In this document: in pieces, positions 6,008 to 64,000 of the stretch
Numbering within the stretch: position 1 is the first letter of the stretch
Layout of the letters: each line of letters opens with the position of its first letter
NCBI GenBank assembly: GCA_052327205.1
Contig: CM126226.1
Span: 40,176,001-40,240,000, forward strand
Reading direction: 5' to 3'
Origin: Somniosus microcephalus
Lineage: Eukaryota
Length of the DNA: 64,000 bases
Program-made: the position numbers and the translations under genes
Notes under the pieces: model-generated
Seen by the model: only the letters and a program-made list of their open reading frames with translations
Told to the model about the DNA's origin: nothing
The model's database searches: none

Positions 6008-6977
6008 TGAAACCTAAAACCACGCAAGTTTTTGGGGCATGAGGTGAGGGAGAGGTGCCCAGTACTGGTCCATCTCCCTCCAAAGGGAGTACAGAGGGCC
6101 TTCCACTCCTGCTCCACAGACTACCACCACCCCTCTCCTGGTAGGTAGTTCCCTGATTCAGCAGTAGTAGTGGTGGAAGGCAGAGATATTGGGCTGCTAG
6201 CCGGGCCCTGCCTACCAGTCACCATTGACAAATGACCAGACAGTGAAGGAGCAGCCAGTGGCCTTTCCTGCCGGAGTGGGGGAAGGAAACGTGAGGCCGG
6301 GGCGGGAATATAATAGTAGGCCTCACAATCCAAAGGTTCTCCTAAATTTTGCCGCTATGCCGTCTGATTTGGGGTATTATCATGTAGGAAAACCCAGTCT
6401 GTCTAAGCTCACACATAAATAATGGCTCGTTAAGTGAGATATGCAGGAGGCTGCCACCACTTGTGGAATCCTAGTCCAGCAGGAGTCCCCACCTCTAGGA
6501 GAGGAAGAGAGAACATTTCCAGAAAACCCACAGAACCAAATGAATATTTACAATATTCTTGGAACAAGCATTAAAAATAATAACGTAACCAAAAAGTTGC
6601 AGGAAATGCTATTAAATCCTCAATGGGTTAAAACTGTAGTTTCAGAATTCAGATTGAACTCTGCAAGCTAATCTTTTCAAAAGGCCCTTTGCTGAAAGTG
6701 TCATCACTCATCAGTGTAAATACAATCATGCTTTTGACTCTATCCAGTACTGCATGTTAAAAGCCTGGATCTTTATGACAATGCTTAGATACTGTAACTA
6801 TGAATACTCAATCAAGTACTTAAACCTTAACAACAGGGCTCCAATACAATTTAACCAGGAGTGGAAAATGTTTGTTAATGGCTATAGTTATAAAAAATTC
6901 TAGCATTTTTATTTTTGAGTAGCAATACCCCTTTGAATATTGTGCATTTATGAGGCATCTAAGCTACAAAGCACTTT

Positions 6978-7696
6978 GGGGGGAAAATTGGGCCACGCCC
7001 CCTTTGGGACGCTAACTTTGCCGTGGCGCTACTTTTAGCGCCCCCGCGCCTGAAATTGAATGGTAGCACCCCAAGCAGGAGGCGTGGCACTACTGGACGC
7101 GCTCCTCCTTCCTCTTGGGGTGCTCCTATTGAATATCGCGGCACTAAGTGTAGCAGTGCCACACGCATTGGCACATAGCGCCGTGGTGCTACAGGTCTCC
7201 CTCCCCTTATTAAAGGCCTAGCGCAGCACGCACCAGGGCCCTGCTGGACCACCAGGGAGCGGGGTGCTGGCAAAAGAGCCTGGCACTCGAGAGGAGTGGC
7301 AGGCTGACCAATCGCGGCCGGCACCGCGCAGGAGGGGGCGAATGCTGGAAGGTGGCCCAAAAAAATGGCCGCCTGGCACCTGCCCTTTAATTTGCGTCGC
7401 CCCGGCCGCAAACTCGGCACCCTGACCCTGTCGGACATAGCGTCTGGCGATAGGCCAGGGGGTGTGAGCGAAGTTTGTGGCCGGGGCGCTGCGCACGGTG
7501 ATGGCTTCATCGCCGGAGGCGCAGCGCCGCGGGGTGCGACCGGCTATTGCTGTTGCTAACCTCCCGCTGAATTTCGCGGGAGGCATTAGCGGCGCCGCGC
7601 CGGGCGCTAGGTTAGCGCCCCCCTTGGGGGAGCGACGATAGCCGGTAGCGCTTCAGGACGCTAACGGGAGGGGCAAAGCAACCCAATCTTTCCCCC
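6978..7696. mobile_element. Harbinger-type MITE (GC-rich)
   Basis: TIRs ggggggaaaattggg / cccaatctttccccc; TSD ttt/tta; inverted homolog of 46199-46733. Confidence 0.85.
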
Positions 7697-7800
7697 TTAC
7701 TCTTTTATAAGTGTACTAGCTGGGGAGCCCCGCGTTGCGAGGGCAATTTTGGGGCGTTTGGTCTCCCTGCCCCTGTGTGTCCCCCCTCTCCCTGTCATGT

Positions 7801-7997
7801 CCTCTCCCTGTCCTATCCCTCCCTCCCCTCCCCTCTCTCCCTCCCCTCCCCCCCCTCCCTCCCCTCTCTCCCTCCCCTCCCCCCCCCTCTCTCCCTCCCC
7901 TCCCCCCCCCTCCCTCCCCTCTCCCTCCCCTCCCCCCCCTCCCTCCCCCCCCTCCCTCCCTCCCCTCCCCCCTCCCCTCTCTCCGGCCCCTCCCCCT
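7801..7997. repeat. Polypyrimidine (CCCT/CCCCT)n tract; G-quadruplex/H-DNA potential
   Basis: About 190 nt of almost pure C/T with many C3+ runs. Confidence 0.95.
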
Positions 7998-8230
7998 GCC
8001 TAGCGCCTGAGGTCCGGTGCCGTTGCTGAGGTCCCCCGCGTATCGCGCGGCTGATGGACGGCCGCTGCGGGCGGTGCATGTGCGGTCAGTGCGAGCGGCC
8101 CGCGGGAGCCGGCAAGGCCGTTAGCGAGCGGGAAACTTCGGGCAGCGCGCCCGCGCTCCGTCCGCGACACCTGAGAGTGGGGCGCGAGGGCAATTTTGGG
8201 GCGTTTGGTCTCCCTGCCCCCGTCATGTCC

Positions 8231-8415
8231 NNNNNNNNNNNNNNNNNNNNNNNNNNNNNNNNNNNNNNNNNNNNNNNNNNNNNNNNNNNNNNNNNNNNNN
8301 NNNNNNNNNNNNNNNNNNNNNNNNNNNNNNNNNNNNNNNNNNNNNNNNNNNNNNNNNNNNNNNNNNNNNNNNNNNNNNNNNNNNNNNNNNNNNNNNNNNN
8401 NNNNNNNNNNNNNNN
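8231..8415. other. Assembly gap or masked run (185 N)
   Basis: N run whose flanks (tcatgtcc / ctctccggcc) equal the flanks of the 176-nt pyrimidine tract in the first unit. Confidence 0.99.
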
Positions 8416-8734
8416 CTCTCCGGCCGAACAGCCGTTACCATAACAATATCACCGTGCTAGGCCAGTCCAAAATGACAGTTGCTAGTAAGGTTGCTGCAGT
8501 CTTTTTAATAATTTCAAATGTGCATGCTTCTTCAATATTGTGGAGTTAAAATGTCCGTGGGGGTTGACCTGATCGCCTTCTGTAACTTGAGCGGAAGATC
8601 CACAGAAACTTCTGGAGAAACGGTGTGAACGGTTTTTATACTGTTTCTTCGGGGTTTCTGTGGACCTCCTGCCAAGGTCACAAGAAAAAGTGAGATGACC
8701 TGGGACTTCATGCTTCAGTACAATACAGGGGGGC

Positions 8735-9175: not shown

Positions 9176-9196
9176 ATAGAACTCTGGAAATATACT

Positions 9197-9334
9197 GAGG
9201 CTGAAATTCTGCAGAGTTTCCATCAATCTCTCGCTATAACCACAGCCTTTTCCCCCCATTTCCCTGGGGATCTGCCAGTCTCCCACTGGAGTTACAGTGG
9301 GAGACTTGTATGATAGCTGTGGAATTTCAGCTCC
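9197..9334. mobile_element. Short Harbinger-type MITE
   Basis: TIRs gaggctgaaattc / gaatttcagctcc; TSD act/att; internal hairpin agtctcccactg..cagtgggagact. Confidence 0.65.
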
Positions 9335-10677: not shown

Positions 10678-10714
<37 letters not shown>

Positions 10715-10720: not shown

Positions 10721-12077
10721 TCAGCAAGGGGTTAACACCCACAGCTCTACGTCTCATATTTCCAATCTAGTGCGAGTGGTTAGTCTGGGAAGGGTGGTGC
10801 TTCCTTTTCATTTCTCTGCAGTACAGCTAATGGCTACAAGTTCTGATAATGGTTTTTACGCAAAGTGAAAGCCACAAGAAGTGGCTGTTTGTTATCACTC
10901 TGAAACCTCAAGGACTCGCTGCTCAGACATACTCGTCTGTGAGCACGAGGTATGAGTCATACAAAAAAAAGCAGAAAGTACAGTAGAAAGGATATTCGGC
11001 ATCCAACCCTGTCGGCAAAGTGGGTTCTAACGTCTGAGATGATGGGTGCAGTCACACAGTCATAAATACTTTGTAGATTTGACATTTAACCACTGTTGTT
11101 TTTCTGTACAGGCAAGAAAAACTGCTCCATTTATTGAACATCTATGCCTATCACCCTACTGATTTTCACAACAATTGGATAGTGTTCTGTTTCTTTTGAT
11201 ATTTTTCAATCCCCCCCCCACCCTCCTTCTACAAAAAATGAATTTTAAATTGCAAGTCTACACAACATTTTCTCATACCCAGCTGTAGAATGTAGTCCAT
11301 GGTATTGTGGCCACATATACCAGTTACACACTGTGTGGTATTGTATAGCATGAGCCACCCAGTTCACACAGCTGTGACCAAGAGTTGCAGACCCTGGAGT
11401 TTGTAGCAACCATATATGTGGTATTTGTTGATTTGAAAGGCCTGTGCAGTATGGCATTTCTAATATGCAGGCTAGAAATTTCTCTCCACGATTTATCTTT
11501 CTAAAATCAACTAGCATTTCCACATCAAGAAGTAGCAGCAGAGAGGGTTTATTTTGGTCAACCAGGCTGTCTAATGCTTGCTGAAACTCAAACTCATCAC
11601 CATTCTCCAAACCAAGCTGAGAAATGTACGTGAGCAGAGTGTCTGTTATCCGACATAAAGTGCATACTTTCTGCCACAGCACAATGTTCAGAGAGCTTAG
11701 GTGCCGGTTAGAAGACCCAGGCCTAGAAATTGGGTATAGCCCCGCTTGAGGCGTTAGAACTGGCGATGCGCAAAGTTTATAGCCAGACGAAACTTATCGC
11801 CGCCTGGCACGATATTGGGTTGCTTCGCCCCCAAAGGGAATTGAGGCGCTAAATCAGCCGTTGCACGGTGCTCTTAAGGCGCAAAAGGTCAGGCGCTACT
11901 CAATATCGGCGCGGACGGGCGCAGCGCAGGTGAACTCAATTACGGGAAAGCACGAGACCTACAGGCGCCGGCCGGCTCTTAAAGGGGCGGGTCAGTCAGA
12001 CTGAGCTTAAACACCCAACGCCCTGTAGGCCTCAGATTCGGCGCTCGCCCTTGTCTGGCATTAGAAACTTGTGCATT

Positions 12078-13242
12078 ATGGAGAAGGTTAGGCAGAGAGC
12101 AGAGCGCTTCAGCACTGAGGCTCTGGACCACTTGGTGGCTGCAGTTGAACACCGTCGAGAGGTCCTGTATCCGGATAATGGCAAGAGGCCAAATCAGAAG
12201 GCTTATCGACGATCTTGGAGGGAGGTTGCTGTGAGGGTGAATTCCAGCAGCATGGTGACCAGGACCCCTGTTCAGTGCAGGAAGAAATTCAACGACCTCA
12301 CATGGATCGTTAGGGTGAGTGATGGTTCACCAAACTTGTGCTTCCCTCCATCTGCAGCTGACTTCGGGCACCCTGCTGCAATGATGCGCCAATGGCCATC
12401 TGTCAGTATGCACCCATGGCCCTTTCTGGCCACACACATGGACAGATGTCTCAAGGCCTCATGTAAGGGCTCTTGCACCATGGGGGGCATGCGATGAGGT
12501 CTCAAGGCCTCATGTAAGGGCTCTTGCACCATGGGGGGCATGCGATGAGGTCTCAAGGCCTCATGTAACAGAACCTCCCCTTCTTTCCCCTGCAGTCCAA
12601 GATGGCACAGATTAGAAAGGAGCAGCGTCGAACCGGTGGCGGACCTCCACAAGTGGTCACTCTCACGGATCTGGAGGAGAGAGTGCACCAGATACTTGGA
12701 GGACGTCTGTCTGGTCCAGTGACCACTGCATCTGCCGACCCAATTACCAACAGCGAGGGTAAGACTCTCACCTTTTCCACCTGTTGCCTTCCACTTGGTC
12801 CCCCCGCCAGCATGCATCCTCAGTGCGCAGCCATGTCAGAGCCATGCCGCAATCTGGCATGCCTTTCAGCAAACCTGTCCTTTTGCTAAAGCCACTCTTC
12901 CACCTCCCACTTTCAGATGAAGCAGCACCAACTCGGGCTCAACGCGCTGAAGCTGCCAGTGCCAGTGCCACCGGAGGCGAGGACCAGGAGGAATCCGGAC
13001 CAGCCGTTGCAGAATCCGGGGAGCGGAGACATCTGCAGACTGGGGATAGTAGTCCCCTGGAGGGGAGGGGGGGTGGCTCTGAGGATGAACCAGTTGCCGG
13101 ACCAAGCGGCATGGAGCAACGCAGGGGGGATAGGCAAGTTCGGCCACCGTCTCCCCGCAGGGCAAGGCAGGTCGTCATGACTGCTGCACAGAGTGCAGAT
13201 GAGGTCCGTCGCCCTCCAAACAAGCTCCCATTCCGATGCTAG
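12078..13242 (+). CDS. Myb/SANT-like (trihelix; NAIF1/MSANTD-like) Harbinger DNA-binding protein, 3 exons (12078-12314, 12596-12758, 12917-13242), 241 aa
   Basis: RAERFSTEALDHLV..W.EVA.RVN...RT..QCRKKFNDL and RRTGGGPP motifs. GT-AG introns (agg|gtgagt, ctgcag|tcc, gagg|gtaaga, tttcag|at) with matching phases 0 and 1. No stop in the spliced frame. Confidence 0.8.
12448..12568. repeat. 51-bp perfect tandem repeat (~2.4 copies) in intron 1 of the Myb-like gene
   Basis: gtctcaaggcctcatgtaagggctcttgcaccatggggggcatgcgatgag at 12448, 12499 and partially at 12550. Confidence 0.95.
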
Positions 13243-15234
13243 TTGGTCAAAAGGCTTTTAGGTGTAGTGGTGCAAGTGCTTCGGACAGGGTTGAAGGTAC
13301 CAAGTACTGTAAAGCTCAAATCCCAGAACTCCGCTCCACATTAGCTCGCCAACTCTCTCTAGCAGCGATCGCAATGAGCAGGCCAAGTGGCAGAAGATTC
13401 TGCAGTAGAGCTGTCCCCTTTAAATAGCGTCCCCCTACTCCGAGAAGGGCCTGTTAGCCCTCCCTCGAACTGTCACTAATAGCGCTGGGCGCTAAGGCTC
13501 CGGGCGCCACCCAATATGCGCTCAGGCGCTCCTAAAAGGCGTTGCACACTGAAATGACATCATGAGCTGCTTGCGCTCGCGGGTGCGCGCAAACACTTAG
13601 CGCAGGCGCTAAATGTATAGTCAATATCTGAGTTGGCGCTATCTTCATAGCGTCCGCCCCAACATAGCGCTTCGCCCCAATTCTAGGTCTCTTTAGGCGC
13701 TCAGCGCCGGCGCTACCAACCCAATTTCTAGGCCCCAATGTTTTGGGACCCCCAAGTGTGCATGGTGGTACTACCGGAGTTTACCCAGTTAAAACCATGC
13801 CACTCACCAATACAGAGCACTGGTAAGCTTCTAGCTGTTTTCCAATTAGGATCGCCCGAGCGATTAGTGCATTGGTTTCCATGGTTATCTGGAGCTGACT
13901 GGGAAGAATCCCAGCCCTCATTAACAGGTCACCCCTTCAAGTTTCATTGGTGAGCCAGACTGGCTGGTCAATCATCAACATTGCAGACTTGCCTGGTTCC
14001 GGAATTGGATTACCAAGGCTGCCGCAGTGGGTTGACTTGGTTCTGAATTTTCATTGCCAGGCATGTTATATTTGATCCCCCTCGACTCCAAAGAGACCCT
14101 GCCTACCTGCTCCTTAAAAAGGATTCCCACAACAACAAAATGCCAACTGAAAGACACAAAAGAGTGAGTTGTAGTCTCCATTCTGAAAGAATTCTGAGAA
14201 ATTTGGGGTGAAAAATAAAACACAACTGCACTTGGTACATGTATATTAAAGCTGTGACAAAGATTGATTTTGTTAAGCCTTTTTAACCAATATTTAAATC
14301 TTTTGCCCAGCATCTTAAGGAATTGAAGTGACTGGGTTGCGCCTACCGTTGCAATGCTTAGAAGAAGCCTGAATGATGTCTATATGTACATCTGTATGTC
14401 TATACAGTACATAATAACAGTGCTGACAGAGCAGCCAGATGGTGGTGGACAGATGCAGTTCATCACATATCCAGCATTAAACACTATTCAAGCCTCAAGT
14501 GCAGGATGCTCAATAACAAAAGGTTTATATAAAGATCCCAATACCAAGATTGTTCAAACAATGTACAATGTAAACACTGTAGTGATTCCATCTGCCTGCC
14601 TACATCTTTGGGATTACTTCTCTGGTTGTTTTGTCAGCAACAATACTTTCACATACTATTTTTCTGTAAGTCTGATTTTCTGGCTCGCAGTCTTATTTTC
14701 CTGATGGCTTTTAAGCTAGGGCACTAGGGAAGGGTATGGCACTTTGGGGAATAACTGATGCTCTGAGTTTTTCCTTGCACTTCCTGTTGACTGAGACGCT
14801 AAATGGAATCAGCGTTAGAAAGTGCAGAGGAGTTTGTATCATTTTCACCCAACTGTTAGCTAAAAACGTCTGTCTAGGGTGTCATTTTCATTTACAAGAT
14901 TTTTAAGAAAACAGATAAAATGTAGGATTTGAAAATATAATTAGAAAAACAAATGATCACGTTTTAGGTACCCTAACTGGAGCAGTCGGAAGCAAAGTCA
15001 GACAGCAACTCAGCTAGACCACTGGCATAGTTACCAAGTGAAGCCAAGGTGCTTCACGCCATGGGGGATGTGGTGGTAGCATATTTGGGTTGCTCTACCA
15101 TGTCTCCTGTGTGTCCGATCACAATCAGGACTGACAGAATGGCCCGGAAGCAGGTAGCTTCTTCAGGTGGGAGAATAACAAATGATGCAAGGAGCCTTTG
15201 GATTAGAATTCTCTACACAGAGCAGTAAAGTGCT

Positions 15235-44216: not shown

Positions 44217-44332
44217 AGTGTGTCAAGCTTGCATAGGCAGTTTTCATTATAAATGTGGACATAGGAATTTATAGTGGGAAAAAGTTGACACAAAACATTA
44301 AGTAAGATTTTGCAGACAAATGCAAGATGCAA

Positions 44333-47927: not shown

Positions 47928-50769
47928 TTTGTATTAAAGTCAGACCATTTAAAAAGTTACCAACAAAATGTCTTGGCAATCAGCTGATTCCCAATGGAAA
48001 CTGGTCAATAGATTTTGTTTTTTCTTGGTAGAATAGTGACATTGTTGAGATGTAAACAGCACATTTCTAACATGTTTGCCGTTCTCCTTTGCTTTGTGTT
48101 GTTTCCCCCATTCCTGCCACATTTATTCAAGCCATTAAAAAGAACATGAATTTCTTCCTTTGGCTGCGAGAGATGATGGACGGGCTATGATTTTTCTAGG
48201 ATTTCAAACTCCACTGCCAGACTGATTGCTCAATGTAGGTTGGACAGAGAAAGTACAGATTGTTCTCTGAAAGAGGGATACCACACACACCCCTTATAGC
48301 CTGACTGAGAACCAGTAAAACCTGTCATACATTACCAGAGGTTTCATTATAATCTGGCAAAGAATCCCAGGCCTCCTCTCACAAAATTGCCATAAGTTAC
48401 TTACTGGTTCATCCGTATAAAATGTTAACAAAAATTTCAGGAAAATTAGCACTATTTATGCATGCCCCAGCTCTTGCGCCATATCACCACTTTTGTTAGT
48501 TTTCTCCTCCCACATCAAAACTGAGAAACCCTTGAACACCGCTGACAGGTTCAAGTGCCTGCTACTGCAGTGAGTCAAACTGACAAGCTGGGGGAGGAGG
48601 TGCTAAGTCTACTATGGTGACATAGCATAGTTTAATCATTCATTTTCCTATACAGACACGAACATGAAAAAAAGGTTTGTTTGACTGAACTTCAGTATGC
48701 CATAAGAAGATTCTTCTCAGATTTAGGTACAATTTTAAACCACTAGTTTACATAGTCCCTTACTGATCTCCCAGGAATTCAAGCAAATGTGCTTGATGGC
48801 TCAGCTGTTAACTATCTTGCCTTTCTTAGCTGGGATCACCTGTTTTATCAGTCAAAATCTTAACTGGGTCATACTTAATCCTATTAGAGATTATTATGTC
48901 AACTCCTAAATTCCACCGTACAATCTGAATGCTTAAACCACCCAACCTTGTAGTAACTGGTACAGGCTTCCAAGGCACCCTCATGGGAAAAGGAAACTAT
49001 TCTGTAGGCTTAACTTAACAAATCTGTTAGCGCTGCTCTGTAAAGGGTAAAAAAAATGCACATCTGTTTTATTCTGAAGGGGGCTTAAGACAAGTCATGC
49101 TTGCCTGTCCATATTTTCTATGAATATTTGTTCAATGACTCACCCATATGCACTGAAATATTAAAAACATATTTCCAATCAAAATGAGGAATGAAGCACT
49201 TGAAAACTCCAGTCATTATTTCATCATAATTAATTTAAACCTACCTAATTCGAAGTACAGCAGTGGGGTGTGTGTTAGCCCTATCGGTGTACTCCTTCGT
49301 CTCCCAGAGGAACAGAACACAGCGATGAAAACGCCTGCAGTATCCAAAACATTTCTGTGCGCTTTTTGCAGAAAGTAAAAATTACATGAGTTGTTGGACC
49401 CTTAAACTTAACTCCTTGTTGTCCTGTTGGACCGTCACCATGCTGTACCAGACTGAGTAGGATGTGAATTCAGATCCACAACAGCTCTCATGGTCTTCCA
49501 TTCTTCACAGGAGATGGGAAAATTAACTTGGATCTCTCTTACACAGCTCCTCGAGTCGCATTGGTAGAGGCCTGGGAGAAAATTATAGCCCACCCTTTCA
49601 ATTGGGTTTTGGTGTGAGACTGGAAGAGGGAAATATGTTTTAGCTTGTCTTTGTTCTTATCTTTGTTTTCCAACAATATAAGAAAAAGTTATGATTTCAG
49701 TGGTTTAGAATTATCATTTTAGTGGAAGAAAAAGGTCATCATTAGTTTTACTTAATGTGATAGCACAACTATTGTGTCCATACAAGACCTTCTTAGCTGG
49801 TTGTCTCTACAACCGTGCACTATCTGTGTTTGGGAAAATAAAATAGTTTCAGTTGCAGACTCCATTCAAGGATTTTTGCAACATCAGCAACAAAATACAA
49901 GCTCATGCTAAAAGCCTTGAAGTACAGTAACAGAAGAGCACCTGAAGTCCCCATTCGACACACTAATGAAAAATCCTAGCATTTGAACCATAGGGTTTTA
50001 TAAGCACAGTTGCTTGCTGACAATACTATGCGATAGAATCACAGGCATGGGGTAGAAATATTTGCGAAAAAATGTTCACTTGTCCCTAGAGAATACATAG
50101 CCCACATGCAACTGAAATACATCGGATGTACAGGCACAATTTTGGCGAAAAGATAACTTTTCAGTTTCCAAAATTATAATCATGCCAATCTAATTTTTTT
50201 TGATCAGTATACTTTTGCCCCCGTTTAACCCAAACTTCAGTCAGCTTCACTCCAGAGGGTGGGTCTCTGGATTGTGGATTTTATAACTATGATAGTGCTT
50301 GCTGCTACAAACTGCTCCAAATGCAGTTGCAATCTAGCCAGTAGCTAGAAAATCTTGAGTAAAAAATGTTTATTAAAAATGAAGTCAATGGAGAAGAACA
50401 TTGGGCGGGGTGTATAATAGGCGGCTGATTCGATATCGCTTATTTTACACCATCGTTGAAAGCCAAAATTACCCCAAAGTGTCTACACAATGAGTTTTTT
50501 TATGGGTGTATCACATCCCACCTTCCAATGCTATAAAAAGGGTTAAATGGAACCAGTGAATGCATGCGTGCACAGTATTTTGTTTTATCGACCTTCGTTC
50601 ACATGCTTATCTTGTATTGTTACGAGGAGCTGCTGAAATTATGCAGTATAGAAAAAGGTTGAAGAAGAAAAATATAATAAAACGTTGATAATTATGAAAT
50701 GGGTTTAAGCAATAAAAAGGTTTCATGCATTAACCATATGCATAAGCTTCTAATTTATATTCAGCCCTC

Positions 50770-51110
50770 TCTTCTAATGGCTCAGTGAGTTTATCCAGAG
50801 TTGCTGAGCCGTAGAGACCTGGAAAGTTCTAGGTTTGTCCTGAGTTAGTTGATCTAGGCCAAGGCAACAGCAGGGGCACTACAATTGGACTCACCGCCCC
50901 AGGTTAGGGAGGGGAAAATCAGCTAGGGCTCCTGCTCCTGATCATTATTCGGTGACTATGGTGGAAGGATGCATGTGTACAATCTGGCTTTGCTTTGATG
51001 CATCCCGCGGTCGAACAGGCTGAAAAGATTTACTGTAAATGGTCACACATGACTTCTGGCCCACTGGCAAGGTATCAGAAGGGAATTGGCAGCAAGATCT
51101 TCAGGAGAGA
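50770..51110 (+). mobile_element. Family A SINE
   Basis: tggctcagtgagt head; ctacaattggactc..ggttagggaggggaaaatcagc body. Confidence 0.65.
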
Positions 51111-52274
51111 AGGGAAAGGGTGACACGAGGGGAACAAATTACCAATCTGCAAGTTAATATATATTTTCACATACCAACTGCAGGATGCAGATCAATATGA
51201 CAGCTTTTAATTATCTATCCAGTTAACAAAAATCAACAATTTATTTTAATCTTGTTTTAAAATATTTTAAACTTCTAGTAAGTGTGCTTTTATGCTGGGT
51301 AAGGTGGGTGACTGAGGTTTATTTACTGATCACTTTTTGTCTGGATGCTGTAAATCATTTCAACATAGCAAGTGGTCCATCAGCCTCTTCCCAACAAAAA
51401 CAATCATGAAACTCACAGTTGGATGTGGGCGCAAGTGCCTGGCCAGGCAACACAAAGCACTCTATTTGTCCTTTCTTTTATTGATAATTTTTGCCAGAAT
51501 ATTTTTTTCCTCAGTGCTTGTAAAGATATCCCTGAATTAAACTCGCCAAACCCCAAAATGTTTTCCACAATGTTTTCCTAGTACTTTACTGGTCTTCATC
51601 TTTTTGTATTTTGTTGAACTGAATATCATTTGTCCTTCTTCACACCAATCAAACAGTTGAGTCTGACAGAGCGCAAGGGTCACAAAGGCAAAGGCCCATG
51701 TTTAGACTTAAGACCGTTGATTTAGAATCAATAGTAGACATAGATTAAAGAATGAAACACATACACAATGAATCATGTGCCTGACCATAGCAAGGCTAAC
51801 TGATGCAACCATGGCCTTGCACGTTCTGTGAAGAGTGCAAACATCCACTCGGCATTGCAGTTTAGTGGTACGGAAAGAAAGAGTTTGCTTTTATACAGCA
51901 CCTTTCATATACTCAGGACATCCCAGAGAACTTCACAGCTAATTCATTACTTTGAAAGTGTTGTTTCTGTTGTTTTGTAGGCAACCACAGCAGACTTTAA
52001 AAAAGTTATTTCCAACCTGAAGTGGCCTGAAATTTAACACGAGGTCTAGCAGTTTTACCTCATTACATCCTTCGGTGCATTTTATCACTGTCAAACACAC
52101 ATACATTGTAATGGTGTGTATACTTTGAAGGATCAATTTCCTGCATTTTTTTCTGATCAAACAAATTAAAATTATTGGGACTAAATTTAAAAAAAAACAA
52201 AGACTCACATTCTGACTTAATGCAAATTTTGCAGCCTACAATAGCTTAAGTGAAAGAGAACTCAAAACTGCAGG

Positions 52275-52640
52275 CTCCTCCAGTAGCTCAGTGAGCAGCT
52301 GCAGCACAGAGTGTGGTACTGGGAAGATCCCAGGTTTGATTCCTCTGGTCTGTGCTGAATTAATCCACTTCAGTCAGGACACAACAATTGACCTCAATGT
52401 CCTCAGGCTTGGGAAAGAGAAAAGACATTAGCCAGGGTAACTGCTCCTGATTGTTAACCACTAAAGTGCACATGTGCAGATGTTGGCTGAGGGCTGGATC
52501 TTGCGCAGCTACGATGGCCTCCAGAGTCAAACAGCCCATCGACACGTACAGACACTGTTCACACATGAAGAATAATCACTTAGGTACAATACTGAAGGGC
52601 TGCCAGGGCACATGGAACTGTATCCTACCATGAGTCACCT
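52275..52640 (+). mobile_element. Family A SINE
   Basis: gctcctccagtagctcagtgag head; cacacatgaagaataatcacttagg body. Confidence 0.65.
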
Positions 52641-54127
52641 TCAGGGTCCAACCCCAAATGAAAGCCAACCTTTTCAAATGATCATGGAGAAATACAATTC
52701 AACGGGTGTTTTAACTAGAGTTAAAATTCAGTTGTGTTGATAAGCTACAGAGAACTTACTCTGTATGGCAAGACTTTTAGTGAAACATAGCATAATAGTA
52801 CTAGATTTTGTACACCTACAACATACTACACATAGGGCATAATGCTACATGATTCAATATTTACAATAGATTAGTTACAGTAATAATGCAACTTAGAAAT
52901 TATGGTAAGGTAGCCAATAGGTTTTTCAATTACAACCCCTGAAATAGAAACTGCAATGTAGAAACAATTTTGCTGGGTATCCTTCCCAAAAGTGCAATAC
53001 TTGAAACTAGGCCATATTTCTTTCCTGTCATACTTTAGTTACTCATCTGCTAATTAACAGGTTGCAGTAGAAACACCTCCAAGTCTGCCTGTTCTACAGT
53101 GAATCCTGTTTTTCACCATCTTTTCCCCAGTTTTTTTCCTTAACCATTTGTAATCAAATTTAGAGAAACAAATCAGTAGCCCAGGAAATCATAACCTTTC
53201 AAAACCAAGGTGGATATTTGCATCAGCTTATAAAAGGGTGGACATAATGAACATGTACTCCCGGTGTGGGTGATTATCGGGAAACTATGGGTAAACTACA
53301 CATGATTTTCTATCCATTAAAATTAATCAATTTCTTGAGTTGCGCTCCCAGTGGGCAAGGCTCCACACCAGGGGTGCACATTCATAAAAATGGCTCTATG
53401 GCATTTACAAGAAAGCTCCCCTCTCTGTTTGTATGTATGTTTGCAAGTTCTGACCAATGTGAAGTTATTTTTCAAAGTTTCTCTTTCATAGAATGCCAGA
53501 CAGGTGCGAAAATAGATCAACAGCATAGATGCGACAAGTAGGAACGCAAATGTAGAAGTAGGTTAATGCCTTCCTGGAGGCATTCTGTTGGAAGCATGTA
53601 GAGGATACACAATAAGAAGGCACAGATTTCAGAAAATAAACCCTCAAGTGTAATTTGGGTGCATATCTGATTTGGACCATGGCATAAGGATAATTTTTCA
53701 AAGATGCGCGGTTCCATTTCCCGTAGTTGTGTCGTAATATATATTTTTTAATTTTAAATAAATACAAAAAGGAATAGAAATGAGCCTTTGATGGTAAATC
53801 ACTGCTGGAATCCCCAAGGTTATTCGGGAAAAAAATGTAAATGCTGGTTTAAGGGCTAAAGCTGTTCCTTCAGTTAATTAGGTGATCTGGGGGGAAAACT
53901 GACATTTTCTGATCTTGGCTGGCAAAGGGGAAATAAAAGAAGGGAAATAGGGGAATAAACAAAATAACTAATATATAAAACTGCACTATATACACATTGC
54001 AAGCATAAATTCATATTTTTAGCAAAGCCCAGCAAACTTGCTGTTTTGGTGCTGAATAATGAGCTACAAGTTTAATACTGTCACATAAGATATTTTATGT
54101 TTCAGACATTGAGTTGCTTCCGAAGTG

Positions 54128-54527
54128 TTTAGCTGGGAGGCAGTTAGGGCTCATTCAAGATTGTCAGGCAAGCAGTCTGACAACACAGAGGCAATGGAGG
54201 GGGTCAAGAGAGTTGGTGGGGAGGTAGAGCTGAGCGTCAGCAAACATGTGGAAGCTGTCACGATGGCTGCGGATAATGTCACTAAGGGACAGCATGTAGA
54301 TAAGGAACAGTAGGAGGCCAAGAATGGATCCTTGGGGGACTCTGGAGGTGATAGCGTGGTGGTGGGAGAAGCCATTTCTAGAGCTGCTTTGGCTATAATT
54401 AGATAGGTAAGAGCAGAACCAAGGGAGGGCAGTCCCACAGAGTTGGATAATGGAGGAGGTGTTGAAGGAGGATCATGTGATTGATTGAGTCAAAGGTTGC
54501 AGAGAGATCGAGGAGGATGACGAGAAA
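54128..54527 (-). mobile_element. L2-clade LINE RT fragment
   Basis: LVILLDLSATFDSINH.ILLQ; downstream SxVPQGSILG and degenerate FADx-TQLY-like motifs across frameshifts. Confidence 0.8.
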
Positions 54528-55496
54528 CAGTTCTGTAGGGAGTGGGGTAGCACAAAAGAGCTGTAAATAGTCAGTGTGGGTCCTGACAGAAGTCTTGACA
54601 AAATGAGGCGAGCTAAATGGGACCGAATGGCCTTCTCTTATTGCTAATTTTAAGTGTATTTCACTCGGCAAGATCCTTCGCAGAGCCAAGAAAGTGATGG
54701 AGTCACGGTGATTGTGTGTACAATTAGAAGAGATGAAGAATGTTCCTTTCTGGGGAGCTGTAATATTGAAAAATCATGCACATGTAAAACTAATGTAAAA
54801 ATCTCGTCTTTGGTGACTCCATACATTGTTTCAACGTTTTTAAAAAAGTTTTCCTTTGCATGGCTTTGCAAATAATTAATAATTATTAAAACTTTGATTG
54901 ATATTAAAAGGACCTGATAATATTTGTAATGCCCGACATCTCTAAAGACGGCATTCCTTTTTGTAGTGTGATCAGATAAAATGCAATCCCATGTAATTAC
55001 AGATCCTGATCATTTCAAACATTTGCATGTGTTTTGAGAGTATGACAGAAACATTCTTATTTGGAAGCAAGGTTGGAGAGAGATCTTGAAAATTACTTTC
55101 TGTGGAATAACACCTTTTATAGGAAAATTAACTTATTCTCATTATGCACATGTATAGAACTGGATGAGAGAACTGTATGCTTAAAAAAATATCAGGGTCT
55201 GTAAATGCGTCACATAAATATCCTTTATTCCAGAATCAGGTCTCCCATCTGCACCACTTCCTCAAAGGCTGTGCGTTTTCAATGCAGCAACTATATTTGC
55301 TAACCAGACAGTTCTTTAGAAATAAAAATGAACTTTGCTATCCAACCATAAAATGCAGACTGTTTATTGAGACTGTCTGGTCAGTTACTCCAAAACCAGA
55401 CGGTGCATTTCATTCAACAAAACCGCATTAACAAGGGTGGACTGACCCTTTCCTCACCTCTCAGCAGCCAAATACTTTATAGAATTTACGCGCATT

Positions 55497-56053
55497 GGGT
55501 TATAAATTTGTCGGCGCCCGGTTTCAGGCATGAAGGTAGCGATGAACCGGGTGGCCCGAGGCCCGATTTCATTAATATTAATTAGGCCAGCTGCCGGAGC
55601 CTGTCGTGCCTCCATAGACAGCTCGCCCAACTGAAGAAATTAATCTCAGGCCGCTGGCAGGAGGGGAGGGGGGGTCGGTATACTGTGGAGTCAAGGGAGC
55701 GCTCCTCTTCTTCCTGGCTCGACAGCAATGACTTTGTAACAGTTACCTCTGGTTCCTGTTGCTTAGCGACTGCGTAAGAATCCCGTGCGATGCAGGCCCG
55801 GCTCCTGCTCCGGGACATAGAATATGGGCGAGCGGGCCTAAAATAGGCAGTAGGCCCCTCACTTACCTATGTAAGGGGCCTAACGCCAGTTTTAGGCAGC
55901 CACCAGGGATGCCTGTAAATGCGCCTGACCCAATATAGGGTCTGATGTACTGCAAGTGTCCTTTGGTGGCGGGGCGTTCGTCCCTGCAATTGGCTTGCAT
56001 TGCGATCATTTTATGCCCATAAAACCGGCACAACGGGGTCCAATTTCTAACCC
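55497..56053. mobile_element. Harbinger-type MITE (distinct family)
   Basis: TIRs gggttataaatt / aatttctaaccc; TSD att on both sides. Confidence 0.85.
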
Positions 56054-56056
56054 ATT

Positions 56057-56754
56057 GGGGGAGAAATTGGGTGAGTAGCGCCACCTGTTAGCGCCTAAAG
56101 AGGCAGTCAGTGGCTGTAGCGCCACTGGCTGCGTCTCCCGCGATATTCAGTAGGGGCGCTAATGGTGGCGTTAGGCTTTTGCGCTGCGCCGCCACCGATG
56201 ACGTCATCGGTGTGCGCAGCACCCCATTCGTGCCCCGTTCGCGATATTTGGTAGCGAACGCCGCAGTTGCGCCGCTCGCTACCCGCGCCCGGTTCACGGG
56301 GCCTTACTGTGCCGGCAGCGGCGCAAGTTAAGGTGGAGGTGCAGGGCGGCCGCCTGCCAGCACCTCCGTCCCCGGCCTCCTAACCCCCCGCCCCCCCGCG
56401 GCATTGCCGGCTGTTTCCTGAGAGCCCGGCACTTCTCCTTGGTGCCGGGCTCATTTGCCGGCACTCGCGATCGGGGATCGCGCTGTTGCAGGCACCTCCC
56501 CCTTAACAGTGGGAGGAAGGCCTGCAGTACCGCAGCGTGCCGTGCCGCAGCATGTGGCGCTGCGGCACGTTGCGCTGCGATATTCAGTTTCATCGCCCTA
56601 AGAGGGACGCGGAGCGCCTCGAGCCTCGCCCCGTGTCCCTTGAGCGGCACTGAAACTGAATTTCTGGCGATCGGAATTACTCCGATCGCTGCGCTAAATC
56701 CTGCGCTCAGGCGACTTTTGCGGCACTTTGGCGCCCCAACCCAATTTCTAGGCC
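56057..56754. mobile_element. Harbinger-type MITE, inverted homolog of 43531-44216, with mixed TIRs
   Basis: gggggagaaattggg / cccaatttctaggcc; TSD att on both sides. Confidence 0.9.
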
Positions 56755-56796
56755 ATTGTGTTTTCTCTTTCAATCCCTGAAAACTACGTGGTACCT

Positions 56797-57537
56797 CATA
56801 GAATCATAGAAATTTACAGCACAGGAGGCCGCCATTCGGCCCATCTTGTCTGTGCCAGCCGACACAGTGCTGTCCACCCTAATCCCACTTTCCAGCACTT
56901 GGTTCGTATCCTTGTAGGTTACAGCACTTCAAGTGCATATCCAAGTGCTTTTTAAATGTGATGAGGGTCTCTGCCTCTACCACCCTTTCAGGCAGTGAGT
57001 TCCAGACCCCCACCACCCTCTGGGTGAAATAATTGCTCCTCAAATCCCCACTAAACCTCCTACCAATTACTTTAAATCTATGTCCCCTGATTATTGACAC
57101 TTTTGCTAAGGGAAATAGGTCCTTCCTATCCACTCTATCTAGGCCCCTCATAATTTTATACACCTCAATTAGATCTCCCCTCAGCCTCCTCTGTTCCAAA
57201 GAAAACAACCCCAGCCTATCCAATCTTTCCTCATAGCTAAAATTCCCCAGCCCAGGCAACATCCTTGTAAATCTCCTCTGCACCCTCTCTGGTGCAATCA
57301 CATCCTTCCTCTAATGTGGTGACCAGAACTGCACGTAGTATTCTAGCTGCGGCATTACCTCACACTTCTCTGGATTGAATTCCATTTGCCACTGTTCTGC
57401 CCACCAGACCAGTCCATTGATATCTTCCTGCAGTCTATAGCTTTCTTTTTCATTATCAACCACACGGCCAATTTTTGTATCATCTGCAAACTTCTTAATC
57501 ATACTTCCTACATTGAAGTCCAAATCATTGATATATT
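56797..57537 (-). mobile_element. CR1 LINE 3' part with internal deletion
   Basis: KFADDTKIG..W...WQMEFNPEKCEVM joined directly to PQLEYYVQFWSPH; then ERVQRRFTRMLPG; ttctatgattctatg tail. Confidence 0.92.
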
Positions 57538-57783
57538 CCTGCTCAAGTTATAGAGCTGGCACTTCAGTTTGCCCTCTGAATAATGTAAGGTATGTATTTT
57601 TAATACTTTTGGCTTTGTGGCACAGCTAAGATAAGAAACAGATAATGTCACATAGACCTGGTGCTTTACCAAAATCCAGTGGTTTATTAGGAGCAGCCAT
57701 TTAACTAGCATGCTGATCATCCTTTCTGGTTATCACTCTTCATCTGGTTGTACATACAACCAATGTGAGTTCTAGGTAGTCAT

Positions 57784-58030
57784 GATGTGGAGATGCCGGT
57801 GTTGGACTGGGGTGGACAAATGTGAGAAGTCACACAACACCAGGTTATAGTCCAACAGCTTTATTTGAAATCACAAGCTTTCAGAGCGCTGCTCCTTCGT
57901 CAGGTGAAGTGAAGAGATGCATATAGGCACAGCATATATAGTCAGAGAACACTGCCAGATGATTACAGGTAATCTTTCTAACTGCCCTTTATCACACCGC
58001 GGCAGAGAGATAATCACAGCAATCAGAGGT
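57784..58030 (-). mobile_element. Penelope-like element terminal (pLTR-like) fragment
   Basis: Contains a hammerhead core and AATAAA on the minus strand; ends ccagtccaacaccggcatctccacatc. Confidence 0.7.
57871..57907 (-). ncRNA. Minimal type-I hammerhead ribozyme motif (Penelope type)
   Basis: Minus strand ucac-CUGACGA-a-ggagc(agc)gcucu-GAAA-gc-UU-guga. Confidence 0.65.
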
Positions 58031-58159
58031 GTGAATGGTGTCTAGGTAGGTGTGAGCTGTGGTAGAACAGGGCACTCACGCCTAAAGAAGACGCTATTGT
58101 AGATCTAAAGGACTTTTTGATTACGTTTTTAGAAAGAAACAAGATTTGTACCATCAAGA

Positions 58160-58330
58160 TCACAGATGCATTTAAGGGGAAGCTAGATAAGTACATGAAG
58201 GAGAAAGGAATAGAAGGTAATACTGATAAGGTGAGATGAAGTATGCCAGGAGAAGGCTCGTGTGGAGCGTAAACACCAGCATAGACCAATTTGGCCGAAT
58301 GGCCTGTTTCTGTACTGTAATTTCTATGTA
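58160..58330 (+). mobile_element. CR1 3' tail (similar copy at 59680-59800)
   Basis: gatgcatttaaggggaagctagataagtacatg..ggccgaatggcctgtttc..aatttctatg. Confidence 0.8.
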
Positions 58331-58547
58331 TTATGGCTTCAGTTAAATCTTCCAAAGTTTCCGCAACAGATATTGCAGAGACAACAATGGGGATAATTGA
58401 TCACAGGCCTAGGTTCAAATGCCAGCCGTTACATACTCCAAACTGATTGCCAGTGCTGCACTGTATGTACCATGTACAGCTGGAAGATAGGAAGGGAGAA
58501 ATAGGAGAAGAGGGTGTCTTTTCAGGGCATAAAATATTGAGAATTTG

Positions 58548-59378
58548 CAGATGCAATATAACGTGGATAAATGTGAGGTTATCCACTTTGGTGGCAAAAA
58601 CAGGAAGGCAGATTATTATCTGAATGGCAATAGATTGGGAGAAGGAGAAGTGCAATGAAACCTGGGTGTCCTTGTGCACCAGTCGCTGAAGGTAAGCATG
58701 CAGGTGCAGCAGGCGGTTAAAAAGGCAAATGGTATGTTGGCCTTCGTAGCGAGAGGGTTTGAGTACAGGAACAAGGATGTCTTGCTGCAGTTGTACAGGG
58801 CCTTGGTGAGACCACATTTTGAGTATTGTGTGCAGTTTTGGTCGCCTTATCTGAGGAAGGATGTTCTTGCCATGGAGGGAGTTCAGCGAAGATTCACCAG
58901 GCTGATACCTGGGATGGCAGGAATGACGTATGAGGAGAGATTGGGTCGATTGGGCTTGTACTCGCTGGAGTTTAGAAGAATGAGAGGGGATCTCATTTAA
59001 ACTTATAAAATTCTGACAGGACTGGACAGACTAGATGCAGGAATGATGTTCCCGATGGTCGGGGAGTCCAGAACCAGGGGTCACAGTCTAAGGATAAGGG
59101 GTAGGCCATTTAGGACAGAAATGAGGAGGAATTTCTTCACCCAGAGAGTGGTGAACCTGTGGAATTCTCTACCACAGAAGGCAGTAGAAGCCAATTCAGT
59201 AAATATATTCAAGAAGGAGTTGGATATATTTCATACGGCTAAAGGGATCCAGGGGTATGGGGAGAAAGCAGGGACCGGGTACTAAAATTGGATGATCAGC
59301 CATGATCGCATTGAATGGCGGAGCAGGCTCGAAGGGCCGAATGGTCTACTCCTGCTCCTATCTTCTATGTTTCTATGT
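58548..59378 (+). mobile_element. 5'-truncated CR1 LINE, same subfamily as 4216-6007
   Basis: Near-identical to 5180-6007 with premature stops (tga ~58656, taa 58998-59000); ttctatgtttctatg tail. Confidence 0.95.
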
Positions 59379-61149
59379 TCACAAATGACTACTTTTGATT
59401 CGCCCATTTTGCTATCTGTATTACTGCAGCAGGCCGAAAAGAATATTTAAATTTTGAAAGAGACTCTGAGCAAAGAATCGTAAACTTACATATAAAAAGT
59501 ACAACTCTCCTCTTCTCCAGAGAGCGAGTTTTGGCAAAGTTGGTTAGGCATTCAATGGGGGAGGTGAGGTGTGTAGGGGGGCGGGGGGACTCTTCTGGCA
59601 CTGCTCAAGCTTTCCTCATGAGTCAACTAAAGTATATAATTGATGGCTAGATCATTTGTACTCTGAACAGAGACCAGTTTAGAAGGTTGTGCTGATAGGG
59701 TTAGGTGAAGAGGGGTGGGAGGAGGCTTGTGTGGAGCATAAACACCGGCATGGACCAGTTGGGCCGAATGGCCTGTTTCGGTGCTGTAAATTCTATGTAA
59801 TTCTAGTGTGGATGCAGAGGGTGGGAACAATTTGAGAATGGAGCGGTATAAGAAAAAACAACAACATTACAACTTCCACCCCCCCCCCCCCGCCATCTGT
59901 GCCCCACTAAAAAAGTGAAACAGCTTTACAAAAAAGTAAAATGTGCGTACGTGTCAATTGCAGCTGCTGACTGCAGAATGCACCAAATTCAGTGGTTCCC
60001 TTAAGGAGACTAACTTAAAATTAGACAGAGAAAGACGTTTCTGCACAGTGTCCATATTGGTACAGTACAGCACAATTCATCTGGGAGTTACAGCACTGCA
60101 ACTTCCCAGCTGCACATGGTATTTGCAAAAGTAAACAGGCTGAACTTTATTCCTCCATCTGGTAACCTCCATTGGCCTACACATACATATAAATCTGCAC
60201 ACTTAAAATCCAAGACAAACCAGTAAGCCCATAGCCATGAATTTTAATGGACAGTTCGAAGCTGTAAAGAACTTTTCTAATGCCCCAGAGAAATTACAGT
60301 ACTTTCCCAGACAAGCTTTCTTTGCCTTCATGCACCAGACATTCCAATGGCATGACTTGCTCAGCGCTGGGGGGAGGGAGGGAAGGGGGGGGGCGCGTTG
60401 GACCTCTGCCACTAGCTATTCATCAAAACAGATCAATATGAGACATACAAACATTCTCATCCATAATTAAAGGAAATGTCACTAAACTAAAAGTGCGCTT
60501 ACTGTAAAACAGGATGTTGCGGTTACACTGTATAAAGCCTGCATCTTTCTTTTAAAATGGTGTGTGTTTTTTTTATTAAATGAATGATAATTTGCTCAAT
60601 TATACATCAGGCACTAAACACTAGTTTCATTCTAAACCAACTACCGGTGCAGCAAGCCAGAATTGTGCAACTGGGCAATTTTGTTTCAATTTAAAACTAA
60701 CAGACAGACAGCCAAATGTTAGCATTTGTTAATCTGGCTAGGTTAAGCAGCAGCTGGTAGCAAATGAGGAGCACGCACATATAAATCTATAGACATAAAA
60801 TCCGAGTGCTCCCAGATATTTACTTTTTGCACTGTAGACTTCTGGAGTAGGACTAAGGGACCCTCAATTAAACTCAGCTGGGTTAATGTACAATACAGTA
60901 CACATGCTTACAGGTAACATGTATGTATAGAGCAATTCCAAATTCCCAAGTTGCTTTGATTCTATTGAGCAATGTAACCCTTTAATTACAGACAGCTGTT
61001 TTCCAAACTCTCTTTCATCTGCACTGATTCAATGTCTTTATAACATTTTTTCTTAAATAAGTACAGTCCATTAATTTGATTATATTTTGTTTTAAGAAAT
61101 TTTCCAGCCCATTACAAAACGATCTCTTTCATAAATTGATCCTCAGTAG

Positions 61150-61560
61150 TAGAACTATAGAAGCTTGCAGCACAGAAGGAGGTCATGTGTCCCATCGTGT
61201 CTGTGAAGTTTTCTTAGTGAAACATTCCAAAACTAATGCCAATGCCCTGCTCTCTCCCCATAGCGCTGTATCTTCCTCGGCTTCAAATATTTATCCAAAT
61301 TTCCCGTAAAAAATGCACGGTCTCTGCCTCAACCACGCCCTGCAGCAAAGCATTCCATGCTCCAACAGCCATCTGTGTAAAGAAACTTTTCTTAACCTCT
61401 CTCCTCACTCTTTTCACAATAATTTTAAATTGATAATCCCTCATCACTGAAATAGTCTTTCTCTATTTACTCTATCAAAGCTCTTCCTATTTTTGTTAGA
61501 AAAACCTTCATTAAGTCTCCACTTTGCCTTCTCAGGAAAATAATTCAATGTTGCTATTTC
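61150..61560 (-). mobile_element. Old CR1 3' fragment
   Basis: FDRVNRERLF-like coding remnant and cagcacagaaggagg tail. Confidence 0.65.
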
Positions 61561-62611
61561 TCTGGACTGCTTAAAAGAGTTCACATGAAAGGAAACACAT
61601 CTTGGCCTTAATAAAAAGAAAAAGAGTTTCCCATTTTTAAATGTTTTCATGCTACTTTAGAAATTAATGAGACTCCTTATTACACAGGGAGTGTGTGCAA
61701 GTACAGAAGCTGCTTACAAAGGTTACAACAGTAATAATGTGTGGTATGGCTTTCCTTCTGCTTGCTGACACTTGTGGATACCAGCTTTTGTTGGGTTAAC
61801 GTTTTCTGCTCTAATAAAAGTACGGAAAAGGCTTACCTGAAAGTATGCAAAGCAGGTAAATTTGATGGTACATGAAAGAAAAGCAGAAAAAATTATTAGA
61901 ATACTAGCTGGGCCAATCTTTTTTTGTAGTACAATATTTAAAAACATAGGATTGTCTAAATACGATGTTGTAGTGTTAAGACCACCTGCACTTTGTGTAA
62001 TGAATATTTTGAAAGAGGCAGATTTTGTCCCACTCTTGGTAATTCTCTGACTTGTAACATTGCAACTTTACCAGTAAAACAGAAATTATTCCCCAATCAG
62101 GTTGCTAAAAATCCACGGTGCTTCTGAGACACACCTGCTTGTAGCCCTCTTACAAAGGGGTCTAGGGGAGCAGTTTTACATTCTCTCTGAGCTGTGGGGG
62201 TTGGGGGGCGATGGATTGGAAGCGTAGACACCCTGGAACTGGCAACACTATGCTGCAGGAAGTGACCCCGCTCAGCAGGCAGACGCCAGAGATAGTCCGT
62301 AGTGGGACGAATGCCCACCGGCTATATATAAATTAAATGACTTCTCCCTGACCCTGTACACTGTGGCAGGGTCAGCACTAGAGGCCCCAAGCAGGCGCAT
62401 CCTATCCATTTATGCTGGGATGCTACGTCCAAGGATTTTCGGCACTGCTGTGTCTCACATTCGTAATATTGTTTATTGCAGGCGGTCATCTTGAAATCAG
62501 CCAATAATCCTCCAATAACAAAGAGGAACAAAACAGTAGTTTTAAAACTTTTAATATGTTACTTGCATTTTATATAGTGCCCTATCACACTGAAACATTT
62601 CTAAACACAAT

Positions 62612-63367
62612 GGCCCAGTACTTCGGGTCCCAACGCGTGAGTAAGGATGGGGTACTCACGCGTGGACTCGATGGAAGTGCCGGTTTCTTGCATGCACAGT
62701 GCATGCGCGGGAAACTGGCATTTCCTCCAAGGGGTTCAGAGGTCCAACGCGTGCGCGCAGGACTCTGCGCGCACGCGTTGAACTTCCTTCTTTTTTACAG
62801 GTTTGCCCGTGTGTAAGGGCCTCAACTTTTTACGAATGTAAAAAGGAGACGCAAGGACTTGATTCTTTAAGCTAAGTGGTCTATTTTTTAAAATTATAAC
62901 ATTTTTTCCACAGCTTTATTGTTTTTAAGGACTTTACAGTAAGGTAAGTGTATTTTTAGACCCGATTTAAACATTTTTTATTTTTTTTAAAAATTTGAAT
63001 AATTGTTTAAAATCGTTTTTTAAAGTTATTTATAGTTCATTTAATTAGTGGGATGTTTTTAAAAATTTTATTTAAAGTTTAAGTAGTGTTTTGGGCGCCC
63101 GTAGTTTTCATGAGTTTGACAGTTCTTACTATCAAACTCATGAATGAAGTTTTCCCTCCCCTGATTGGCTGCCCAGTGCTCACCTGATCCCAGCCGGCAC
63201 ATCGAACTAACTACGCCGCTGGATCAGGCAAGCACATCGCGCCAACAGCTGAACCGGGCCAGTGACAGGAATTCCAAGCAGGCTCAGGCTTCAGCTGTCG
63301 GCGCGCCGGGTAAGTGCACATCGGGGGCTTGCACGCGCGGCAAGCCCCCGAACCTAATTTCTGGGCC
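62612..63367. mobile_element. Harbinger-type MITE with AT-rich core and hairpins
   Basis: TIRs ggcccagtactt / aatttctgggcc; TSD aat/att; left flank aaacac. Confidence 0.75.
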
Positions 63368-64000
63368 ATTGAATTATATTCGGGGCGCACTAACTATTAT
63401 TATATACCCAAAAGAGAATCTTCTGCCTAATGTACAGCTAGGCCATAGACAAATTCAGCTTGTAATACTGTATTTTTTCATTATGAATGATGACATTTCC
63501 CCCCCTGTATATGCCAGTCTGGCAACGTGATTAAGAACAGATTTCCCAGTAAGAATTAGCCCCGTTTGGATGCATTATCTGAAGTATTTGACTTGTCAGG
63601 GTAGAAATCCCGGTCAGCAGGCTTCACAGACAAACGTTGAATTTGCTTGCACCATATTCCTATATGTGATTTTTTAAACAGGTATTAACTGATTTAAAAT
63701 AAACAGGTTAACACGTGCATAAAAAAAAAACATACAAAGGAATGCTGTTGAGTGCATTCTTATATATGAAGCCCACCAATCACAGAATTTGTATCCTGTA
63801 CTACACTATTGCAATCAAATCAAGATCCCACCCGGGACCATTTTTATTGGGAAACCAGTCCAGACAACTAGCAGAGAAAAAGAAAGGTCACCAACTCCAC
63901 AGTGAACAATAAACTGAATGCAACCGTAAAATCTGGACTTCCCCATAGCACATCATCTGTTGAAATGTGTAATTTTGTTTCAATAGAGTTAAGATCCATA

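Follow-up and report, generated by a model that had tools for sequence, protein, structure and literature searches.

Elements in the window

The DNA analysed here, referred to as the window, is the 64,000 nt of Somniosus microcephalus contig CM126226.1 from position 40,176,001 to 40,240,000. The insertion sites analysed are those of this window, and coordinates are counted from its first letter. It contains eleven elements with terminal inverted repeats (TIRs) of the PIF/Harbinger type, which lie at ten sites, one of them double, and sum to 9,733 bases or 15% of the window. All 22 element ends start with G, and 21 of these with GG, followed by variable positions 3–6 and a RAATT core at positions 8–12. 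A preliminary description of this DNA had identified the sequences as Harbinger elements, and the GG ends, 3 bp target site duplications (TSDs) and a Myb_DNA-bind_5 domain encoded by one element (E 4.8e-10) bear this out. The ten sites and left ends that it gave agree with the sequence letter for letter. For 55497–56754 the site was read correctly, but the insertion is two elements rather than one.

No strand is assigned to nine of the elements. Four of these are mutually 70–76% alike: E1 (6978–7696), a 719 bp non-autonomous element with 12 bp TIRs that agree at 10/12 positions and the TSD TTT/TTA; E6 (43531–44216; 686 bp, TIR 12/12, AGT/AGT); E7 (46199–46733; 535 bp, TAT/TAT); and E9b (56057–56754; 698 bp, ATT/ATT). 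E6 and E9b are 76% alike over 629 columns, and E1 is 70–73% alike to the other three. E3 (11720–13734, + strand; 2015 bp, CCA/CCA) has perfect TIRs and a Myb gene only, with no DDE transposase match, and the left 270 bases of E8 (47068–47927; 860 bp, TTT/TTT) are 65% alike to it. The remaining elements have little in common beyond their ends. These are E2 (9197–9334), a 138 bp old miniature inverted-repeat transposable element (MITE) with TIRs alike at 10/12 positions and the TSD ACT/ATT; E4 (20278–21044; 767 bp, TIR 12/12, ATA/GTA); E5 (33272–35273, − strand), an older 2002 bp element with a decayed Myb exon, TIRs alike at 7/12 positions and the TSD ACA/ACA; E9a (55497–56053; 557 bp, ATT/ATT); and E10 (62612–63367; 756 bp, AAT/ATT). 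E9a and the younger E9b stand in tandem (55497–56053 and 56057–56754), with ATT occurring three times. The interiors of nine of the elements are CpG-rich, with observed/expected ratios of 0.64–1.03 (0.85 in E1) over a background of 0.31; the ratio is 0.43 in E5 and 0.12 in E2.

E9b is young and has a perfect TSD, yet the starts of its TIRs are unlike one another (GGGGGA and GGCCTA). This suggests that TIR positions 3–6 matter little and that the GG and the RAATT core matter. Internal palindromes of 50–90 bases at 43600–43700, 46590–46690, 56570–56665 and 62660–62790, which are common among E1, E6, E7 and E9b, are possible Myb-binding or hairpin modules. Elsewhere, stretches of raised GC content that show inverted repeats or resemble TIRs are present at 6177–6365, 22490–22670, 28980–29455, 40420–40870 and 62160–62450. 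These are possibly older, decayed Harbinger MITEs; their ends are too worn to call and they were left out of all counts. The density of Harbinger-type elements is one per 5.8 kb, in a single window that may not be typical, and their 15% share greatly exceeds both the 0.002–0.14% reported in teleosts and the 1.58% that DNA transposons as a whole make up in the grey reef shark.

Sequence preference of the flanks

The insertion sites share a palindromic target, here refined to AAAYAC-WNW-GTRTTT. With both flanks of the ten sites read toward the TSD as 20 half-sites, positions −6 to −1 are A in 14, A in 15, A in 17, C in 10 (Y in 15), A in 15 and C in 14. The information in these six positions is 4.38 bits. 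Random sites gave a mean of 0.68 bits (maximum 1.9), AT-matched sites a mean of 0.78 bits (maximum 2.03) and shuffles within each half 2.05 bits (sd 0.22), and in each of the three nulls none of 20,000 draws reached the observed value. The letter enriched at −1 (14/20) and at −3 is C, not A or T. Positions −12 to −7 are at background level (P 0.48), therefore the motif is 15 bp wide. The flank preference is real and well above chance, and the earlier claim of a palindromic preference beyond AT richness holds within the window.

When each site was scored by a leave-one-out procedure, all ten ranked within the top 0–3.6% of 52,863 background positions. After small-sample correction the information per site is roughly 8–9 bits, or one site per several hundred bases, which indicates a preference rather than site-specific integration. 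A scan for TIR pairs with TSDs recovered ten of the eleven elements, missing E5, and its other pairs were near chance (67, against 39–62 in simulations); no strong element with poor flanks has therefore been omitted. TIR-like hits were likewise at chance frequency (37, against 26–41 simulated). One such hit at 902 has a good flank, an AT-rich interior and no partner end, and was not counted.

The Harbinger3_DR element of zebrafish inserts into AAACACCWGGTCTTT (PMC3016246), the target that the preliminary description had cited. Against this consensus, fixed beforehand, the window half-sites match at 88 of 120 letters, where the nulls gave 36 ± 5 for random sites, 37 for AT-matched sites and 54 for shuffled halves. 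The likeness of the flanks to the zebrafish target is supported. The basis of the earlier proposal that flank recognition is conserved across fish lineages is one zebrafish family and ten sites, and since no transposase was found, shared descent of target recognition can only be inferred.

The duplicated trimer

A TSD length of 3 bp gives 29 matching letters of 33, and the duplication is perfect in 7 of the 11 elements. Lengths of 1, 2 and 4 to 8 bp give 4/11, 10/22, 9/44, 18/55, 8/66, 24/77 and 22/88, which are near chance. The matches are maximal at the called ends and are lost when the ends are shifted, except in a 5 bp C-NNN-G register (45/55). Complementarity between terminal trimers stays at 26–29 of 33 as far as the called ends; two bases farther out it is 17, and three bases out it is 12.

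Though variable, the trimer is biased, and the earlier view of it as unconstrained is not sustained. Its outer bases are both A or T (W-N-W) at nine of the ten sites, for a background of 0.356 (P 0.0006). Against a flank-matched background P is 0.003, or 0.005 if the E4 trimer was GTA. A-N-T is present at 4/10 sites (background 0.087, P 0.008). CWG was found at none of the ten sites, nor was TWA or TNA in both TSD copies at any of them; a single copy, in E1, is TTA. The trimer is preceded by C or followed by G in 14 of the 20 half-sites. The preliminary description had named two outcomes that would tell against it, flanks showing AT richness only and ends shifting to a fixed TWA or CWG duplication, and neither was seen in the window.

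Presence of the insertions in related organisms

Contigs from sequencing runs of four organisms, D, E, A and F (word shares 0.81, 0.71, 0.35 and 0.20), were compared over 43420–63419. These are four of 20 listed runs, those with shares below 0.2 being left out; run X17 may be the source sample and so is not independent. Contigs of organisms A and F span E7, E8 and E9a, and these insertions therefore predate the splits from them. E9a is present in all four runs. In A and F the contigs extend over E9a as far as its right end (56051 and 56059). The 68 and 52 letters that follow do not resemble E9b, and their number is close to what separates the E9b empty site from the next repeat, at 56800. The organism A contig matches the E10 locus as far as 62610, a position within the trimer, and 2406 letters of it remain; the match of the organism F contig breaks off at 62610 too, with 7 or 82 letters left depending on how a minus-strand record is counted. 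E10 is likely to be absent at this place in both organisms. Over E9b and E10 the summed depth in A and F is approximately 50–1000 times below that in D, which is not a measure of copy number. By inference rather than base by base, these comparisons suggest lineage-specific insertion of both E9b and E10.

The end sequence of E9a (TAACCC) is similar to a target half-site. Scored as half-sites, both ends of E9a rank in the top 2%, and the other 20 element ends at 18–74%. If E9b arrived after E9a, its left half-site was the end of E9a. The contigs suggest that E9b did insert next to E9a, with the end of E9a imitating a half-site; this is a single case of what a flank-reading model predicts.

The Myb gene

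A Myb/SANT helper gene is present in E3, with a decayed copy in E5 and none in the other nine elements. In E3 the first exon (12078–12314, + strand) encodes Myb_DNA-bind_5 (Pfam PF13873, E 4.8e-10). A predicted second exon (12596–12758, +) is matched by shark Myb proteins in tblastn (E 6e-4 to 5e-3) and has AG/GT borders; its splicing is putative. The putative third exon (12917–13242, +) is an open frame in phase with the second that runs to the stop, and has no family match. The first predicted intron contains a perfect 51 bp tandem repeat (2.4 copies, 12448–12568). The decayed exon in E5, at about 34762–34968 on the − strand, has one stop; it is matched by P0001 in tblastn (E 7e-9) and has no Pfam match on its own.

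HMMER found 62 relatives of the E3 Myb protein, of which 20 were looked up. Fourteen of these are from sharks or rays, ten of them among the best 14, five are from teleosts or frogs, and one has a truncated name; the nearest relatives are elasmobranch, from which an elasmobranch host is likely. No DDE domain is listed for any of the 62, with five of seven families shown for one protein. Word-index protein searches with the Myb exon gave no matches among 109 candidates and 1 candidate. A metagenome scan for the TIR and subterminal pattern, which matches three ends in the window, returned no loci, and the Myb alignment in the same type of scan returned one locus of 81 candidates, 37% identical and decayed, which was of no use. 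Low-complexity + strand frames at 33984–34300 in E5, facing the Myb exon, were considered as a transposase remnant and gained no support from searches. There were no Rfam matches.

Other features of the window

E1 is followed by a GC-rich block (7697–8420) with a duplicated stretch (about 7730–7790 and 8180–8230), a long C/T-rich tandem tract and a 185-base N gap. The block is CpG-island-like and is possibly a promoter or an assembly problem. Two CR1-like pieces of long interspersed nuclear elements (LINEs) at 4080–5997 and 58401–59365 have reverse-transcriptase frames (Pfam RVT_1) and agree at 95% over 300 bases; elsewhere the window contains many short tails of LINEs.

Proposed mechanism and alternatives

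PIF/Harbinger transposition is described as requiring a DDE transposase together with a TIR-binding Myb protein, and the insertion generates a 3 bp TSD (PMC2836001). According to the same source, the extended target spans 9 bp for plant and 15 bp for vertebrate elements and follows the proteins of the element across hosts, and which of the two proteins picks the target is left open there. It is very probable that the eleven elements are non-autonomous PIF/Harbinger-type elements mobilised by a DDE transposase and its Myb partner acting in trans, through symmetric reading of six flanking bases and a 3-base stagger. The transposase would be supplied by an autonomous relative elsewhere in the genome. 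A symmetric transpososome may read the six bases on each side directly (AAAYAC...GTRTTT), and a cut with a 3-base stagger would give the A/T-edged 3 bp duplications. The trimer itself would be read only loosely, as A/T at the cut positions, perhaps via bendability. Several families that differ at TIR positions 3–6 presumably use the same or related enzymes.

A number of observations weigh against this reading. None of the 102 stop-free frames of at least 50 aa inside the elements matches a DDE transposase family, which makes the elements non-autonomous derivatives. The sample amounts to just ten sites, drawn from six or more families that differ in age, and a mix of family-specific trimers could mimic one loose preference. 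Four of the 11 TSDs have one mismatch. The TIR profile used in the scans was trained on the eleven elements themselves, without an independent hold-out set. The flank motif (at least 4 matches) is present at none of 15 unpaired TIR-like hits outside the elements, a result that neither helps nor clearly hurts. For the lineage-specific insertions, absence of E9b and E10 in organisms A and F is read from contig stops and not from explicit empty-site joints, and the D and E contigs extend only 15–23 letters into these two elements, under the 31-letter bridging rule.

The variability of the trimer could instead result from pooling, with each family having its own fixed or near-fixed trimer (for example ANT, ANA/TNT or YGG). 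The elements do fall into several families, either 65–76% alike or unalignable, the related pair E6 and E9b both have A-N-T (AGT and ATT), and one TSD class per family is given by Han et al. Against this, the related E1, E6, E7 and E9b carry TTW, AGT, TAT and ATT, and E3 and E8 carry CCA and TTT. Both TSD copies agree in most of these, therefore the trimers of related elements are not one fixed trimer altered by single mutations, and pooling is an unlikely explanation, though the most probable of the alternatives. The flank motif itself might be thought an artefact of A/T-rich DNA or of choosing elements with good flanks, as the sample is small, was picked by eye and has A-rich flanks. The failure of the AT-matched and within-half nulls to reach the observed values, the enrichment of C at −1 and −3 and the lack of any strong omitted element in the pair scan leave this hardly credible.

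The register and the enzyme could also differ from those proposed. Were the duplication 5 bp (C-NNN-G), with each element one base shorter per end, the 45/55 matches in this register would be accounted for; it is the sole alternative register that scores well, and the choice between TNA and CTNAG for the NuwaII group is left undecided in the account of Han et al. (PMC4482050). This is very improbable, in that the element-side letter is G/C in 22/22 ends and the host-side letter in 16/22, and the six departures are all host-side (sign test about 0.03), as would be expected of a preferred flank base and not of a duplicated one. In addition, E2, E3, E4, E7 and E8 seem to lack C at −1 or G at +1 yet begin with G and end with C. 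Another candidate is a transposase of the ANT-duplicating Pangu clade in place of one like that of Nuwa or Harbinger3. A-N-T is indeed the commonest trimer class (4/10 sites, P 0.008), and two Pangu families have a Myb_DNA-bind_4 open reading frame (ORF). It is nonetheless improbable that a Pangu transposase drives these elements: six of the ten sites are not A-N-T, no vertebrate Pangu is reported, the second ORF of Pangu is mostly without a recognisable domain, and the Myb domain here is Myb_DNA-bind_5, as in NuwaI, with flanks that match a NuwaI element. Trans mobilisation with symmetric flank reading and a 3 bp duplication is the preferred reading.

Significance

All characterised PIF/Harbinger elements are described as having an extended target of 9–15 bp (PMC2836001). 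A target of this extended palindromic kind is therefore a known trait of the group, and the main claim is already known. What appears to be new is the combination, in a vertebrate, of a WNW/ANT trimer with flanks like those of Harbinger3, which fits none of the TSD-defined groups with a Myb gene. Harbinger elements in sharks are on record from repeat annotation of the whale shark (PMC8455134) and the grey reef shark (PMC12498223), and were not detected in the elephant shark in the account of PMC9179366. No description of a target site for a shark Harbinger was found in the literature searched, outside of which lay the primary papers of 2004, 2008 and 2012 and Repbase/Dfam, where targets of this kind may be on record.

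It is tentatively suggested that an elasmobranch Harbinger lineage, large and repeatedly active, has kept the flank code of Harbinger3_DR and switched its trimer from CWG to W-N-W/ANT. This is a possibility rather than an expectation. If true, the transposase would have separable modules for reading the flanks and for choosing the trimer, PHIS elements could not be grouped reliably by TSD, and the ends of some elements would restore a half-site and give rise to tandem arrays. With a vertebrate pair that has the same flanks and different trimers, CWG in zebrafish and W-N-W in this lineage, the flank and trimer determinants could be mapped through comparison and assays in cells, a matter of relevance to Harbinger elements as insertion tools. 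The PHIS rule of sorting by TSD fails for the elements described here, therefore annotation filtered by TSD would overlook or misplace them. The gain is modest, the core phenomenon being known and the sample being ten sites.

Comparison with known systems

Han et al. sort PHIS elements by TSD into groups with TWA, CWG (NuwaI), C-TNA-G (NuwaII) and ANT (Pangu) (PMC4482050). In the same account NuwaI and NuwaII are inseparable on the tree, no vertebrates are given for Pangu, for which a Myb is given in two listed families, and C-NNN-G framing with differing trimers is already catalogued. The window elements have the short TIRs starting with G, the 3 bp TSD, the Myb helper gene and the target preference beyond the TSD that characterise the PIF/Harbinger type (PHIS), and the Myb_DNA-bind_5 partner of NuwaI. 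They do not have the DDE_Tnp_4 gene of an autonomous element, nor the TWA duplication of PIF/Harbinger in the sense of Han et al. (2015), nor CWG or C-TNA-G, and they agree with the ANT of Pangu only in part, at 4/10 sites, where it is enriched without being general. Insertion without a TSD between AAA and TTT, which defines Spy (PMC4122938), does not apply, since the window elements have 3 bp TSDs.

The plant elements PIF and Ping/mPing have a 9 bp target around TTA/TAA (PMC2836001), whereas the target in the window is 15 bp around W-N-W. Elements with the helper gene alone are represented by Harbinger-1M_cIno (PMC13668399), a derivative with Myb/MADF only that in this respect is like E3 and E5 but has the nematode TSD TTA/TWA, and by the one-gene variants of Harbinger-Snek (bioRxiv 2021.06.13.448261), in which the helper gene is likewise the only one between the TIRs, in another host. 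Pangu, as tabulated by Han et al. with TSDs of ANT/AWT, is similar in that A-N-T is the commonest trimer class here and in its AG/GG ends. It differs in the 6/10 sites that are not ANT, in its separate transposase clade and in a second ORF that is mostly without a known domain (PMC4482050).

NuwaII, with C-TNA-G in turtle, Xenopus and amphioxus, shares the C/G frame (14/20 half-sites here), the GG ends and a Myb partner. It is unlike the window elements in that T-N-A is in both copies at 0/10 sites here, and in that the vertebrate NuwaII elements described have Myb_DNA-bind_4 (PMC4482050). The target corresponds closely to that of Harbinger3_DR, which is listed as NuwaI-2_DRer with a 12 bp TIR and Myb_DNA-bind_5 (Han et al. 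2015, PMC4482050, Table S5). The 15 bp palindromic target, the near-identical flanks (88/120), the 3 bp TSD, the 12 bp TIR and the Myb_DNA-bind_5 partner are alike in both. The trimer of Harbinger3_DR is CWG, while the elements of the window, copies without a transposase, have W-N-W, mostly A-N-T or A-N-A/T-N-T.

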